This document shows, one piece after another, positions 4,973 through 9,784 of a stretch of 64,000 nucleotides of DNA. The position numbers and the translations under genes are program-made. Within the stretch, counting starts at the first letter, position 1, and each line of letters begins with the position of its first letter. Origin of the DNA: Bacteroidales bacterium (lineage in GTDB: Bacteria; Bacteroidota; Bacteroidia; Bacteroidales; UBA932); the NCBI GenBank assembly GCA_017962705.1, contig JAGCUV010000141.1, positions 1,894 through 65,893 on the forward strand, written 5' to 3'. The notes under the pieces are model-generated. The model did no database searches, was not told the DNA's origin, and saw only the letters and a list, made by a program, of their open reading frames with translations.

Positions 4973-5080
4973 CGCTGAGCGAGAGCGTTGAGGGAGCACA
5001 GGTGAAAAGAATTTCAGAATCCCTTTTTTCGGGTTCTGAAAACTTTTTGCCTGTGCGTGAAAAGCTCAAGCGCTATTCTT
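4965..5080. repeat. 116-bp imperfect palindrome between convergent yigZ and uvrB (probable bidirectional terminator or REP/MITE-like element)
   Basis: AAGAATAGCGCT (4965-4976) / AGCGCTATTCTT (5069-5080); inner stems GCACAGG/CCTGTGC and TTTCAGAATCC/GGGTTCTGAAA. Confidence 0.75.
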
Positions 5081-7199
5081 TCCAGACTTTCAGGTATTCT
5101 TGCAGCGCCCACATCTCGTCGCGGAATTTGGCGGCGGCAGGGAAATCGAGGGCGGCCGCCGCCTTCTTCATATTGCGTTCTGCCTCCTTGACGCACTTTT
5201 CGACCTGCTCTCGGCTCATCGCACGGATAACCGGGTCCTGGAGTACGGCGGCCAGGTCGGCCTTCACATAGCCGTCCACGGTCTTGGCGGTACCTTCCCG
5301 GCGGGAATCCAGGCCCAATCCGACCGACACTTTTCCGTGGCCCAGCTCATCGGGCGAAGGAATATAAGCCGGATCGTCGTAGGAAGTCGGAGCGCTGGAA
5401 CGGCCTTTGGAAGCGACCAGCACATTGCTGTGCGAGCGAATCTGCGTGGGTGTGATATGGTGTTCTTCGTTATAGGCCAACTGTTTGTTGCGGCGGCGGG
5501 CCGTCTCTTCCAGTGTCCGGCGCATCGAACCGGTAATCGAGTCCGCATACATGATCACCAGCCCGTTGACATTGCGGGCGGCTCTGCCAGCCGTCTGCGT
5601 CAGGGCCGTATCGGAGCGCAAAAATCCTTCCTTGTCCGCATCCAGAATCGCGACCAGCGACACCAGCGGGATGTCCAGTCCTTCCCGCAGCAGGTTTACG
5701 CCGACCAGCACATCGAAAAGCCCGTTTTTGAAGTCCTCGATGATTTCCACCCGCTCCATCGTATCGACATCGGAGTGGATATAGCGGCAGCGTACGCCCA
5801 TTCGCTGGAAATAACTGTCCAATTCCTCGGCCATCCGCTTGGTCAGCGTGGTCACGAGCACCCGTTCATCGCGTTCCGCCCGCACACGCACCTCTTCCAG
5901 CAAATCGTCCACCTGGTTCTCGGTAGGCCGGATTTCGATGGGCGGATCAAGCAGGCCGGTCGGCCTCACCACCTGTTCGACGATGAGCCCTTCGGATTTT
6001 TCCAATTCATAATCGGCCGGAGTGGCGCTGACAAACACGCGCTGGCCCGTCAGTTCTTCAAATTCTTCAAATTTCAACGGTCGGTTGTCCGCCGCAGCCG
6101 GCAAACGGAAACCATAGTCAATCAACACGGACTTGCGGCTGTGGTCGCCCCCGTACATCGCCCGGATCTGGGGAATCGTCACGTGCGACTCATCAATGAA
6201 TGTGACAAAATCATCGGGGAAATAGTCCAGCAGGCAGAAAGGACGCGTGCCGGCAGCGCGGCCGTCAAAGTACCGGGAGTAGTTCTCGATGCCGGAACAG
6301 TAGCCCATTTCCTTGATCATTTCCAGGTCGTATTCCACCCGCTGTTTCAGGCGCTTGGCCTCGAGAAATTTCCCGATTTCCTCCAGATACTTGCACTGGT
6401 CGAGCAGGTCGGTCTGAATCTGGCTGACGGCCAGGGCGCTTCTCTCCTTGGTCGTCACAAAGTTGTTGGCCGGGTAGATGTTGACCTCCTCGATTTCTTC
6501 CAAACGGGCGCCGGTCGCAGGGTCGATGACGAAAATCGCATCGATCTCATTCCCGAAAAACTCCACGCGAACCGCGTTCTGCCCATATCCCATACAGATA
6601 TCCGTGCTCTCTCCGTTGACCCGGAAACAGCCCATCTTGAACTCCCCTTCCGTACGGTTGTAGAGGGCGTCGACCAACGCATACATCAGCGAAGTCTGAG
6701 TGATGCGCTGGCCTTTCTGAAGATGAATGGTCTGGTTGTGGAAATCTTCCGGATTGCCGACGCCATACAGGCACGACACGCTGGAAATCACAATCACATC
6801 GCGCCGGCCGCTCAGCAGGGAAGATGCCGTAGAAAGGCGCAGACGCTCGATTTCCTCATTGATGGACAGATCTTTTTCTATATAGGTATCGGTGGTCGGC
6901 AAGTAGGCCTCGGGCTGGTAATAGTCGTAGTACGACACAAAATACTCCACCGCATTCTTGGGGAAAAAGGCCTTGAACTCGCCATATAACTGGGCCGCCA
7001 GGGTCTTGTTGTGGCTCAGCACCAGGGCCGGCCGCTGCAACCTTTCGATGACATTGGCCATCGTAAACGTCTTGCCGGAACCCGTCACGCCCAGCAGCGT
7101 CACATTCTCCACGCCGCCCGACAATGCCTTGCAGATTCCGTCGATCGCTGAGGGCTGATCCCCCGCCGGCGCATAAGTAGATACCAACTGAAAATTCAT
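5073..7199 (-). CDS. uvrB: Excinuclease ABC subunit B
   Basis: LGVTGSGKTFT, YFVSYYDYYQPEAY, DESHVT, NLLREGLD, C-terminal UVR domain. Confidence 0.98.
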   Translation of the reverse strand: MNFQLVSTYAPAGDQPSAIDGICKALSGGVENVTLLGVTGSGKTFTMANVIERLQRPALVLSHNKTLAAQLYGEFKAFFPKNAVEYFVSYYDYYQPEAYLPTTDTYIEKDLSINEEIERLRLSTASSLLSGRRDVIVISSVSCLYGVGNPEDFHNQTIHLQKGQRITQTSLMYALVDALYNRTEGEFKMGCFRVNGESTDICMGYGQNAVRVEFFGNEIDAIFVIDPATGARLEEIEEVNIYPANNFVTTKERSALAVSQIQTDLLDQCKYLEEIGKFLEAKRLKQRVEYDLEMIKEMGYCSGIENYSRYFDGRAAGTRPFCLLDYFPDDFVTFIDESHVTIPQIRAMYGGDHSRKSVLIDYGFRLPAAADNRPLKFEEFEELTGQRVFVSATPADYELEKSEGLIVEQVVRPTGLLDPPIEIRPTENQVDDLLEEVRVRAERDERVLVTTLTKRMAEELDSYFQRMGVRCRYIHSDVDTMERVEIIEDFKNGLFDVLVGVNLLREGLDIPLVSLVAILDADKEGFLRSDTALTQTAGRAARNVNGLVIMYADSITGSMRRTLEETARRRNKQLAYNEEHHITPTQIRSHSNVLVASKGRSSAPTSYDDPAYIPSPDELGHGKVSVGLGLDSRREGTAKTVDGYVKADLAAVLQDPVIRAMSREQVEKCVKEAERNMKKAAAALDFPAAAKFRDEMWALQEYLKVWKE

Positions 7200-7200
7200 T

Positions 7201-8208
7201 CTAAACCTCCTTTACCACCCATTTTCCGCCTTTGTCCGGTCCTTCCCGCATAAGAAGTCCATCTGCCTTCAATTTGGATAGATGCTTCTCCACGGCCTTG
7301 TCGGAGATGCCCAGCGAATCTGCCAATTGTTTCGTTGTCATTTGAGGATTGTCTCGCAAAAGGCAGCGTATTTTCTCCCTACTTTTCCCCGTTTTCTCCC
7401 TACCTTTCTGATTTTTCTCCCCACTTTCCTGCATAGACTGAAGATAAGAATCAATGTCTATTTTGAGCGTCTTCACCATTTCCCCAGCCATAAAATCCCG
7501 GAAATAGGACAAATTTTCTTTTTCTCGCGTTGCGATTAACGCCTCGATATAATCCGCCTTATCCTCTTTCAGGACTTTGGAGGGAACGAGTCCGAATTCA
7601 AATTGGAGATGGTTCATCAAAAGCCTCGCCATTCGTCCATTTCCATCCGCCCAGGGATGAATGGTAACCAGTCGATAATGTGCATCGAAACTAAGATAAT
7701 ATTGTTCCTGCACCGTCATCTTCTTCTCGCGCTCTGCATTCAGCCAATGACAAAAATCCTCCAAACACGCAGGAACCTTGGTATAACTCATATAGGAACG
7801 CCCGCCGACGCCGGCTGTCACATTGACGAGTCGAAGGTCTCCGTTGGCGGATGAGAACTCCCCCAAGGCTGTTTTATATACAGAACCGGTATTCTTCATG
7901 ACGAGGCGGGCCAGAGACTTTAGAAAATCCACCGTGATAAGTGTATGCTTCTTTGCCAGTTGAATGCTCTCCTCATATGCCGCTTTCAGATCCAAATTCA
8001 TCAATTGTTCAAGGATGGTTTTCCCTTTTGCGGAAATTCCCTCATCAAACAACATCTGGTTTTCTATTTCCGTGATGGTCGAGCCCTCTATTGCCGTAGA
8101 ATGCGTAATAATTGAGTACAGGTAAAACTTCTCGTAGTCAATCTGCGAGTCTATCTCCAACTCTCTATAACGCCCAAGAAGAGTATTCAATTCATCAATA
8201 GCAGCCAT
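7201..8208 (-). CDS. Fic family protein (class II-like) with C-terminal winged HTH
   Basis: Fic motif HPWADGNGRMAR; N-terminal inhibitory-type STAIEG; C-terminal NPQMTTKQLADSLGISDKAVEKHLSKLK...GGKW; more AT-rich than its neighbours. Confidence 0.92.
   Translation of the reverse strand: MAAIDELNTLLGRYRELEIDSQIDYEKFYLYSIITHSTAIEGSTITEIENQMLFDEGISAKGKTILEQLMNLDLKAAYEESIQLAKKHTLITVDFLKSLARLVMKNTGSVYKTALGEFSSANGDLRLVNVTAGVGGRSYMSYTKVPACLEDFCHWLNAEREKKMTVQEQYYLSFDAHYRLVTIHPWADGNGRMARLLMNHLQFEFGLVPSKVLKEDKADYIEALIATREKENLSYFRDFMAGEMVKTLKIDIDSYLQSMQESGEKNQKGREKTGKSREKIRCLLRDNPQMTTKQLADSLGISDKAVEKHLSKLKADGLLMREGPDKGGKWVVKEV
7371..7427 (-). repeat. Three copies of a 15-bp motif (coding strand AAAGTAGGGAGAAAA) at 21-bp period inside the Fic gene
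   Basis: TTTTCTCCCTACTTT at 7371, TTTTCTCCCTACCTT at 7392, TTTTCTCCCCACTTT at 7413. Confidence 0.9.
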
Positions 8209-8228
8209 AGTCCTTTAAATTTTCGCTG

Positions 8229-8276
8229 CAAAGATAACATTTTCTCCCTACTTTCCTCCTATTTTCTCCCTACTTT
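8229..8276 (-). promoter_or_regulatory. Fic promoter: -7 box plus two direct-repeat putative operators
   Basis: TATCTTTG (8236-8229); TTTTCTCCCTACTTT at 8240-8254 and 8262-8276. Confidence 0.7.
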
Positions 8277-9784
8277 TATTCCGCTTCTTCCGGGGCGGCC
8301 AAGGCGGGGATGTCGTCGATATCGACGAGCGCCTTGATGGGATGTTTTCCGCTGTTCTTCGCACCCAGCTTAATCAGTTTGCCGGAGGTATTAAGGATGC
8401 TCTGGCCCTGGGGTTCGAGTTTCTTCAGACCATCCTCATATTCATCAGAGGCTCTTTTCAAGGCTTTGCCCAGTCCTTCATACTTCTCCATAAAAATCCC
8501 CACGCGGTCAATCATTTCGTTGGCCAGTTCGTACACCTTTTCGTGGTTCTGGGCCTGGGCTACCTGTGTCCAGGTCATGCGCACAATCTTGAGCGCCCCG
8601 TATAGAGTCTGCTCATCCGCCATATAGACATTGGCATCCGCCGCTTTGCGCCAGAGGTCCGGTTCGGCCTGGAGAGCCGCCCACAAGGCGCCCATATTCG
8701 GAACGAACATAATCACGTAGCCCGCCGCGACTTTCGGAGCCTGGATATACGAAGCATAATCCTTGGTCGCCAGTTCCTTTACATGCTTCCTAATGCTTTC
8801 GAGATGCGCCTTGAGGAACGCTTGTCGGTCAACTTCTTTCTCTGCATTAACATAATCCACATACGCTGTCAACGACACCTTGGAGTCGATAATCACCTCG
8901 CGCCGTTCATCCAAATGCAGGATAACATCCGGCCGCATCATCGCGCCGTCCTCATTCTTGACGGGCTTGCCGTCGGTTCCGCGGATGACGGGCTGGGTAT
9001 CGAAATGTACGCCCCTGGTCAGGCCCTGGGAAGAGAGAAGTTCTTCCAAAATGGTCTCTCCCCAATCGCCCTGCAGTTTGCTGCCGTGCTTGAAAGCGGC
9101 GGCCAGTTCATCCGCGCTCTTGCGGGCGGCGTCGCTGTGCTCCATCAAGTTTTTAATCCGTTCGCGCATCTCGCCGTTGCGCTCGGCCTGCTCCTTGCTT
9201 TCTTCCTCCATCACCTTTTTCAGTTCGGCGATGTTTTCCTTCAACGGCGTCACAATCTGTCCGAGGCTCTGGTTGCTGGTCTCGGCAAACTCCTTCTGGC
9301 GGGCCTTCAACATTTCGGAGGTGTCGGTTTTCACCTGGGCGGAAATCTTGGCCATCGTCTCGTCGAAACGGGCCTGCAGGGTCGCCATCGCCTCTTTGTG
9401 CGCGGTGTTGCGGGCTGCAAGGTCTTCCGCGTACCGTTTGCCCATTTCGGCCTTCGTATCTTCCAACGCTTTCGCGGCCTCATCCTTGGAAGCCTGCAGC
9501 GCTTTCGCAGCTTCATCTTTGGCAACTTGCAAAGTTTGGGCAGCTTCATCTTTGCTGGCCTGCAGCGCTTGGGCGGCCTCTTCTTTGGTCACCTGCAACT
9601 GATTCCGGGCGTGTTCCAGGTCCGATTCCAAACGGGCCAGTTCCACCTTCATGGAGGACTCCGCCTGCAAACGGACCGACCGTTCCGTTTCGGCAATACG
9701 GGATTTGACAACGCTTCTGGCGACAAAGAAAGCGATGAGGGCGGACAGCACGATGCCGGCCATAAACGAAAACAAAATTTCCAT
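8276..9784 (-). CDS. rmuC: DNA recombination protein RmuC
   Basis: N-terminal TM plus coiled coil; QGDWGETILE, RPDVILHL, IIDSKVSL, YVIMFVP. Confidence 0.93.
   Translation of the reverse strand: MEILFSFMAGIVLSALIAFFVARSVVKSRIAETERSVRLQAESSMKVELARLESDLEHARNQLQVTKEEAAQALQASKDEAAQTLQVAKDEAAKALQASKDEAAKALEDTKAEMGKRYAEDLAARNTAHKEAMATLQARFDETMAKISAQVKTDTSEMLKARQKEFAETSNQSLGQIVTPLKENIAELKKVMEEESKEQAERNGEMRERIKNLMEHSDAARKSADELAAAFKHGSKLQGDWGETILEELLSSQGLTRGVHFDTQPVIRGTDGKPVKNEDGAMMRPDVILHLDERREVIIDSKVSLTAYVDYVNAEKEVDRQAFLKAHLESIRKHVKELATKDYASYIQAPKVAAGYVIMFVPNMGALWAALQAEPDLWRKAADANVYMADEQTLYGALKIVRMTWTQVAQAQNHEKVYELANEMIDRVGIFMEKYEGLGKALKRASDEYEDGLKKLEPQGQSILNTSGKLIKLGAKNSGKHPIKALVDIDDIPALAAPEEAE
9458..9589 (-). 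repeat. About four degenerate 33-bp (11-aa) tandem repeats in rmuC
   Basis: TKEEAAQALQA-SKDEAAQTLQV-AKDEAAKALQA-SKDEAAKALED. Confidence 0.85.

Follow-up and report, generated by a model that had tools for sequence, protein, structure and literature searches.

The window, the whole 64-kb stretch of DNA analysed here, carries a gene for a protein in which a Fic domain (Pfam, residues 91-201, E=1.4e-14) is followed at the C-terminus by a domain of the winged helix-turn-helix (wHTH) type, recognized by HTH_24 over residues 280-319 and by HTH_24, HTH_5 and HTH_11 together over residues 277-320 (Table 1). The active-site motif HPWADGNGRMAR possesses a tryptophan instead of the usual phenylalanine of HxFx(D/E)GNGRxxR, and the residues H184, P185, W186, D188, G189, N190 and G191 are invariant in an alignment of 73 sequences, as is the STAIEG motif, a segment of low pLDDT in the AlphaFold2 (AF2) model, for which 73 homologues served as input. 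As in class II Fic proteins, the catalytic motif and an N-terminal inhibitory motif reside on the same chain. In the model, residues 263-273 stay below a pLDDT of 50, a helix extends over residues 273-286 and the C-terminus adopts a three-helix plus wing fold, with SDKAVEKHLSKLK as the recognition helix and GPDKGG as the wing of the wHTH.

With a GC content of 45%, the fic gene departs from the 56-57% of its neighbours, rmuC upstream and uvrB downstream, the latter of which is, given the 1-nt gap, probably co-transcribed with fic. In the nearest genome the fic gene is absent and uvrB has its own promoter; an adjacency of uvrB and rmuC was not found elsewhere in the genus, and no empty site could be aligned. 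The 67 nt that separate the rmuC stop codon from the fic ATG are filled by two copies of a repeated sequence, the distal of which shares one base with the rmuC stop codon.

Table 1. Features of the Fic-wHTH locus, in positions of the window.
Feature	Position	Strand	Remarks
Fic-wHTH gene	7201..8208	minus	335 aa; ORF with Pfam Fic and HTH_24
STAIEG inhibitory-helix motif	8083..8100	minus	residues 37-42, from the translation; fits [ST]xxxE[GN]
Fic active-site motif HPWADGNGRMAR	7624..7659	minus	residues 184-195
Internal copy 1 AAAGTGGGGAGAAAA	7413..7427	minus	encodes E-S-G-E-K, residues 261-266; disordered linker (predicted)
Internal copy 2 AAGGTAGGGAGAAAA	7392..7406	minus	encodes K-G-R-E-K, residues 268-273; disordered linker (predicted)
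Internal copy 3 AAAAGTAGGGAGAAAA	7371..7386	minus	encodes K-S-R-E-K-I, residues 275-280; start of wHTH helix 1 (predicted)
Winged helix-turn-helix domain	7204..7392	minus	residues 273-335; Pfam HTH_24/HTH_5/HTH_11, AF2 model, alignment
-7 box TATCTTTG, Bacteroidetes type	8229..8236	minus	20 nt 5' of the ATG (8206-8208)
Proximal promoter copy AAAGTAGGGAGAAAA	8240..8254	minus	within the -33/-7 spacer; ends 3 nt upstream of the -7 box
Distal promoter copy AAAGTAGGGAGAAAA	8262..8276	minus	22 nt upstream of the proximal copy; spans the -33 region and farther upstream
rmuC, upstream neighbour	8276..9784	minus	Pfam RmuC, E=3e-81
uvrB, downstream neighbour	5073..7199	minus	ATG 1 nt past the fic stop codon

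The preliminary description had reported that a 15-mer, TTTTCTCCCTACTTT on the plus strand and AAAGTAGGGAGAAAA on the gene strand, occurs twice upstream of the gene, three times within its coding sequence and nowhere else in the window, all of which was confirmed by a mismatch search: the 15-mer is found exactly at 7371, 8240 and 8262 and with one mismatch each at 7392 and 7413, and no further match with up to two mismatches exists in the 64-kb window. By chance, 0.07 matches are expected and 0 of 100 shuffles reached five, so that the observation of five copies is real and far beyond chance. The anticipated objection that the motif might be common genome-wide is excluded, as the rest of the draft genome (2.14 Mb in 146 contigs, 80% complete) holds no extra copy with up to one mismatch; a generic A-rich promoter element is ruled out by the same absence of the motif from the remaining genome. 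The copies are spaced by 21 and 21 nt inside the gene and by 22 nt at the promoter, with the internal copies about 0.85 kb downstream of the promoter pair and read in one common frame as ESGEKN, KGREKT and KSREKI (residues 261-280). According to the AF2 model, copies 1 and 2 are predicted to sit in the disordered linker and copy 3 in the first turn of the wHTH. An internal promoter that would give rise to a short, HTH-only isoform was considered and rejected, as neither a TAnnTTTG box beyond the last internal copy nor a conserved in-frame start is present.

The homologue set comprised 89 full-length loci, 85 of them non-identical, with 46-73% protein identity, drawn from numerous genera of Bacteroidales together with a few Fibrobacter MAGs. 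Phased same-strand arrays of the 16-bp element AAAAGTAGGGAGAAAA surround the -7 box in 50 of the 85 loci and the element is found within the linker codons in 44, with both placements combined in 35 loci, upstream copies only in 15, linker copies only in nine and neither in 26 (odds ratio of co-occurrence 6.7, with a P value inflated by kinship among the loci); since these counts run over phylogenetically related loci, they overstate independence. Allowing one mismatch on the sense strand, the density of GTAGGGAGAAA reaches 9.3 per kb over the 150 nt upstream and 6.9 per kb within the linker window, against a background of 0.12 per kb in the remaining coding sequence and 0.011 per kb in the flanks; antisense occurrences are very rare. 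In 35 of 85 loci, exact 11-mers are shared by the 130 nt upstream of a gene and the coding sequence of that gene, 33 of them in the linker window, compared to 1-2 for control regions.

At the promoters, the homologous copies are oriented with the gene (124 sense versus 2 antisense) and their ends cluster, relative to TAnnTTTG, at -4/-5 (46 sites), at -24 to -27 (35 sites, mostly -25/-26), at -46 to -48 (10 sites) and downstream at +27/28 (14 sites). The -7 box thereby stands at an equal distance from the motif in most homologues, and in some loci the -33 TTTG lies between the two proximal copies. Judged from these positions, the promoter copies have the geometry of an operator array that would occlude the core promoter.

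The codons of the linker copies tell at which level the repeat is conserved. Among 62 instances of SREK, serine is encoded by AGT in 59, arginine by AGG in 62, glutamate by GAG in 61 and lysine by AAA in 60, while elsewhere in those genes the same codons account for 15%, 12%, 37% and 61% of these amino acids, respectively; the invariant peptides DGNGR and STAIEGS use fully mixed codons. All nine lineages mutually less than 75% identical employ AG[TC] AGG GAG AAA, and 583 pairs of SREK genes whose Fic domains are below 75% identity agree in 96% of the codons of the motif versus 18-53% of the codons elsewhere. The alternative held against the earlier proposal, a conserved peptide without conserved DNA, is largely refuted. 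The same DNA is moreover translated in three reading frames, as SREK (103 copies), as VGRK (4) and as a GE[TN]-type peptide such as KKGET or LLGEN (4), and in Fibrobacter genes GGGGAGAAAA is translated as MGGEN/K. Promoter copies and linker copies, taken separately, yield concordant logos even in the flanks that were not used for finding the copies, both with AAAA preceding the core, A behind it and then spacers of low information, and across lineages the motif core is kept while the spacers vary. Where the promoter element departs from the consensus, as in one locus (L071) whose promoter bears three copies of the variant GTAGGGTAAAA, the linker reads AAA AGT AGG GTA AAA and KSREK has become KSRVK. 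Locked codons, three frames and matching logos together show that selection acts on the DNA. The linker copies are thus the promoter element itself under DNA-level selection, with a linker peptide that appears to be largely dictated by regulatory DNA; the suggestion that promoter and linker copies are one element at the level of the DNA has held up on all three counts.

The element is also tied to its locus. In five other genomes, 15 of 19 exact 11-mers were located at the fic locus, which in three of the five held every copy, and a metagenome search by the two-copy pattern retrieved 120 loci with 164 arrays, 131 of them at Fic-wHTH promoters (67) or linkers (64) and the other 33 mostly contig-end truncations or unrelated simple repeats. 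Matches on viral contigs fell in 7 of 7 cases at fic genes or fic remnants. As expected of a self-repressing Fic-HTH gene of the CccR type, locus-specific repeated sites overlap the gene's own core promoter.

Fic domains are about 65% identical across all loci, whereas the wHTH domains of groups that differ in the linker repeat share only about 23% identity. A type A/F linker (GTAGGGAGAAAA or GGGGGGAGAAAA) goes together with the recognition helix KAVEKH, a type B linker (GGTGGACAGAAAA) with RSAVSKH and a type C linker (GTCnnTGTAAAT, period 12) with RTI(K/R)RD; within type A, a group with the helix KGIQRH has A-richer promoter sites and a group with a GSNKTG wing is associated with GTAGGGAATAAA. 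The type B 13-mer is read in two frames in every gene, as GGQKT (14 copies) and VDRK (7). The array and the HTH move as a unit, although co-inheritance of adjacent DNA is no proof that the one reads the other. This is consistent with the portable cassette of operator and HTH envisaged in the preliminary description, as the linker type tracks the wHTH type while the Fic domain stays alike. The expected match of linker and promoter repeats was borne out for type A, in the 35 of 85 loci with both placements and in L071, but not for types B, C and F; covariation of the promoter motif with the wHTH is seen in the KGIQRH and GSNKTG groups.

Genes of types B, C and F as well as those of Fibrobacter showed no copies in their own promoters, and at one type B locus three copies are present in the 5' UTR of a neighbouring DUF262 gene. 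At 15 of 85 Fic loci the promoter array is kept and the linker copies have decayed, which indicates that the internal copies are dispensable. A second Fic-wHTH subfamily (20 loci of the L035 type) was discarded as a replicate, as the conserved peptide WWY dictates its linker sequence TGGTGGTA; the promoters of this subfamily contain the palindromic operators GGTGGTA-N4/5-TACCACC or GGTTGTA-N5-TACAACC, and the linker TGGTGGTA fails to follow the GGTTGTA variant. An origin from a split gene, with fic, array and a small HTH gene in a row, was not found in 14 Fic-only relatives, an apparent new N-terminal domain (L034) was recognized as a truncated remnant of fic and a search with the C-terminal 80 residues gave only Fic proteins among the top matches.

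The reading that we favour, with a probability of roughly 0.6, is that of a SoFic/CccR-type class II Fic-wHTH autorepressor whose operator array is duplicated in its own coding sequence. The protein would be a class II AMPylase/deAMPylase followed by a disordered linker and the C-terminal wHTH, with the 16-bp element AAAAGTAGGGAGAAAA as the site most likely read by the adjacent wHTH. For this SoFic/CccR-type gene, which its deviating GC content marks as horizontally acquired, the promoter array very probably serves as the self-operator. Occupation of the two promoter copies, 22 bp apart, would shut the promoter and establish negative autoregulation, as inferred from the position of the sites and from the homologues. 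The three internal copies are kept by selection on the DNA, with the peptide mostly a by-product of the frame, and could stall RNA polymerase before the HTH-coding part and/or loop to the promoter array, thereby tightening the feedback on a potentially toxic enzyme. The gene thus most likely carries its own off-switch sites within itself, and because these sites sit inside and directly before the gene, the switch would travel with it on horizontal transfer. The dual-use autorepression proposed in the preliminary description is partly supported by the shared DNA-level element, its locus specificity and the precedent of CccR and SoFic; as a general rule it finds no support in types B, C and F or in the ATPase-wHTH genes discussed below. 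Counting against the favoured reading are the direct orientation of the repeats, unlike the inverted repeat of CccR, the loci with copies at the promoter or in the linker only and the exchange of sequence between the two arrays in L013 and L015.

An alternative that is compatible with autorepression, unlikely in itself but to be taken seriously, regards the five sites as a docking platform, a 'DNA antitoxin' in cis, to which freshly made Fic-wHTH protein would bind and on which it would dimerise into a harmless deAMPylating state. On this reading, the linker copies would add local capacity and move with the gene, and loss of the host DNA or titration by a phage would free the active monomer. 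Binding of the HTH to DNA indeed leads to dimerisation of the Coxiella Fic-wHTH protein CbFic2 and to its switch from AMPylase to deAMPylase (PMC10628234), the protein described here fits the PADLOC defence model for SoFic and wild-type Sofic is toxic when leaky (PMC12249575). In addition, types F, B and C keep DNA-level linker arrays without promoter copies, which argues that internal arrays can stand alone. However, five sites could hold only a handful of molecules, AMPylation by SoFic needs the dimer, a polarity opposite to that of CbFic2, and the strict placement around the -7 box favours promoter control for at least the upstream copies.

Improbable, more so than docking, is that only the promoter array is functional and that unequal recombination or gene conversion with it, or slippage, maintains the likeness of the linker copies, which would matter mainly as direct repeats for the deletion or swap of the Fic module. 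The promoter and linker arrays of L013 and L015 share stretches of 15-17 nt including spacer sequence, which points to a contribution of physical exchange to the likeness of the arrays, and another locus (L014) with four identical 21-nt units suggests recent slippage. Relative to the Fic domain, the wHTH has been exchanged along with the linker type, and two viral contigs (L192, L193) carry an orphan 'array + wHTH' without Fic domain, promoter and start codon that looks as expected after deletion between repeats. Nevertheless, 16-nt cores between unrelated spacers fall short of the length at which RecA-dependent conversion is efficient, the core is kept and the spacers vary even between lineages less than 75% identical, Fibrobacter and the nine linker-only loci keep the motif without a promoter donor and the type B 13-mer persists in its two frames in every gene with no copy in the promoter.

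Very unlikely is an RNA-level element, a purine-rich motif acting in the mRNA, for example by pausing or enhancing translation or by serving as a protein-RNA site. The sense-strand orientation of the upstream copies and the occurrence of 5' UTR copies at +27/28 and +49/50 in some loci, such as L114, would be in line with it, but most promoter copies lie at fixed positions upstream of the -7 box and thus outside their own transcript, and the phasing by 21-22 bp fits the helical repeat of DNA. Hardly credible, finally, is a repeat at the level of the peptide, with K-S-R-E-K heptads selected to form a flexible, charged linker or an arm that contacts DNA, and a coincidental match to the promoter: although the peptide K-[ST]-R-[ED]-K-I, with which helix 1 begins, is kept despite codon change, as in KTRDK with ACC CGC GAC, this explanation is largely refuted by the locked codons and by the same DNA yielding different peptides in three frames, by a peptide that in L071 follows the promoter variant, by logos that match into the flanks and by promoter copies at fixed positions in untranslated DNA.

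The preliminary description had suggested that such dual-use DNA could account for the short peptide repeats that often precede C-terminal wHTH domains. Among 30 loci of AlbA_2-type ATPase-wHTH proteins, 19 possess clear linker DNA repeats of 11/12 nt; one linker repeat in this set has an 11-nt period and is consequently read in three frames. Contrary to the expectation that such genes mirror the linker repeat in the promoter, 0 of 19 had a copy in their own upstream 250 nt and nothing systematic was detected within about 1.5 kb on either side. Of the general account, the DNA-level nature of the repeats therefore stands, but the promoter mirror fails outside type A. We consider it possible, yet doubtful, that the short in-frame tandem repeats before C-terminal winged helices in many prokaryotic enzyme-HTH fusions (Fic types A, B, C and F and AlbA_2-type ATPases) are, instead of peptide features, translated, self-addressed binding arrays read by the neighbouring winged helix. 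Similarly tentative is the more general notion that such arrays might be placed where any reading frame is tolerated and that 'array + HTH' might form a portable self-limiting module working as roadblock, loop or docking site. The use of two or three frames, 11-nt-period repeats and locked codons in several families speak for this general reading; the absence of copies from promoters outside type A speaks against the promoter-mirror part of it.

Gut and rumen bacteria abound in Fic-wHTH proteins, single-gene toxin or defence modules the restraint of which is only beginning to be understood (CccR, SoFic, CbFic2). For this restraint, the locus and its relatives yield a defined 16-bp candidate operator with conserved promoter geometry, and they provide a clean natural case of dual-use DNA, in which putative regulatory sites set the sequence of a protein linker. 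If this idea is borne out, it would account for a common and unexplained class of low-complexity protein repeats, caution against treating such repeats as protein features and offer a compact design of self-regulating cassettes for Bacteroides engineering.

The protein shares the architecture of SoFic and is no SoFic orthologue: the PADLOC SoFic profile PDLC03963 matches with E=5.4e-31 (residues 4-322 versus profile positions 29-339 of 361), and the NCBIfam equivalog ProtAdlyltaseSoFic gives 26.2 bits against a cut-off of 550. The full-length fold resembles FICD, BT_2513, SoFic, CbFic2 and 7xux (Foldseek; 7xux, 3eqx, 8cil). A search for the motif string returned no relevant literature match, and PMC5651007 contains nothing about DNA binding.

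Auxiliary intragenic operators such as lac O2 in lacZ, gal OI in galE and purR O2 strengthen repression by looping or roadblock and, as proposed for the locus described here, represent a second copy of a promoter operator inside transcribed or coding DNA. To our knowledge, intragenic operators other than that of purR sit in target genes, and none is a translated tandem array next to the domain that reads it. Same-strand direct repeats with a phase of about 22 bp are known from plasmid iterons, which are read by winged-helix Rep proteins, also for autorepression; the locus differs from these by having no replication origin and in motif length, family and function.

Closest in the location of a site is C.Kpn2I, which binds within its own coding region and stalls RNA polymerase as a roadblock (PMC6237814). 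The coding region of the Fic-wHTH gene likewise holds the promoter element, under DNA-level constraint, as a candidate site of its putative HTH regulator. C.Kpn2I, however, acts on its own as a small regulator in a restriction-modification system and has a single palindromic site, whereas the Fic-wHTH genes harbour 1-4 tandem candidate sites in the disordered linker between enzyme and HTH, with a mirror in the promoter and three frames across relatives.

Closest in the type of protein are CccR and SoFic. CccR of Yersinia pseudotuberculosis, like the protein described here a class II Fic protein whose inhibitory motif lies N-terminally and whose HTH lies C-terminally, represses its own promoter via an inverted repeat at -35/-10 (PMC9755527), so that in both cases sites lie at both promoter elements. 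CccR, the sequence similarity of which to the present protein is low, uses two inverted 10-bp half-sites 26 bp apart, bound by a symmetric dimer, whereas the copies found here are same-strand direct repeats spaced by 21-22 bp and thus do not constitute an inverted operator for a symmetric dimer; copies inside the cccR coding sequence are unreported. The authors of the CbFic2 study propose an effect of DNA binding on CccR at its promoter like that on CbFic2 (PMC10628234). SoFic (Shewanella oneidensis SO_4266; PDB 3EQX), with a domain order as here and EF-Tu as its target, binds the 100-bp stretch preceding its start codon (bioRxiv 10.64898/2026.07.09.737422), for which neither an operator sequence nor intragenic sites are reported. 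Published precedents thus exist both for Fic-HTH proteins that repress themselves (CccR, SoFic) and for a regulator gene that contains its own operator (C.Kpn2I); to these, the locus adds a translated, frame-independent candidate operator array as a so far unpublished design.

Because the stop codon of fic and the start of uvrB are almost contiguous (see the table), and because no -7 box (the Bacteroidetes-type promoter element TAnnTTTG) for uvrB is visible in the final 100 nt of fic, transcription of uvrB is here probably driven by the fic promoter, so that self-repression of fic, if any, would act on uvrB as well. In the nearest genome (locus L117), the fic gene is absent, and uvrB has its own promoter with a divergent ATPase gene upstream.

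Location of the genes, junction and repeat arrays discussed
Feature	Location	Strand	Remark
fic stop / uvrB ATG junction	window 7197-7203	-	1 nt apart
uvrB	window 5073-7199	-	downstream neighbour of fic
AlbA_2-type ATPase-wHTH gene	L126:798-2255 (C59)		12-nt DNA repeats in linker
AlbA_2-type ATPase-wHTH gene	L127 (C143)		12-nt DNA repeats in linker
TTCRTTGAAAAAAATGTA array	L030, ~10-110 nt past end of Fic-only gene		direct repeats
Type B motif array	L114:2770-2880		three copies
Orphan unit	L192:2200-2430		motif copies and wHTH
Motif array	L260:1246-1340		three copies

Downstream of a type B fic gene, which carries a different linker repeat, three type B motif copies (GGTAGACAGAAAA, AGTGGACAGGAAA and AGTGGACAGAAAA) are located between a -7 box and the start codon of a DUF262 (GmrSD-like) gene, and the fic and DUF262 promoters of this locus are similar to each other. 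The orphan unit of two IMG/VR contigs (L192 and L193) consists of two copies of the motif of the window's fic gene and a wHTH, with neither Fic domain, -7 box nor start codon, and has the form expected if the segment from the promoter array to the linker array of fic were deleted. On a metagenome contig (L260), the motif array is directly followed by an ORF starting IGVDISKDTLDA, like the N-terminus of an IS110-family transposase, and may mark an insertion into a fic promoter.

Fic-wHTH genes in Fibrobacter or Fibrobacterales MAGs (L054, L079, L080 and L088) are ~60% identical to those of Bacteroidales, which implies that these genes have crossed from one phylum to another in the rumen; they retain the motif, in a different reading frame, and are without a Bacteroidetes-type promoter.

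Linker repeats also occur in two ATPase-wHTH genes of the draft genome that contains the window, with AATGGAGGAGTA in four copies (NGGV) and AATGTCATAGAA in three (NVIE) as units. The C59 gene has in its 5' UTR, directly after its -7 box, the sequence AATGTCGTAGAA, which differs by one mismatch from the unit repeated in the other gene's linker and could point to cross-regulation. In two further ATPase-wHTH loci (L131 and L132), the linker repeats, with the units GACAAGTACCA (~4.7 copies) and AGTTAYCCCAC, have a period of 11 nt, so that successive units are read in each of the three frames (TSTRQVPDKYQTSTRQV); a slip by one unit would put the wHTH out of frame.

An AAA-ATPase gene has three copies of TTCRTTGAAAAAAATGTA around its promoter and start, a further phased direct-repeat promoter array, from another gene family. 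In a second Fic-wHTH subfamily (L158-L176 and L035), the -7 box is adjoined by palindromes, GGTGGTA-N4/5-TACCACC or GGTTGTA-N5-TACAACC, frequently in two or three copies, which are likely the self-operators of these genes.
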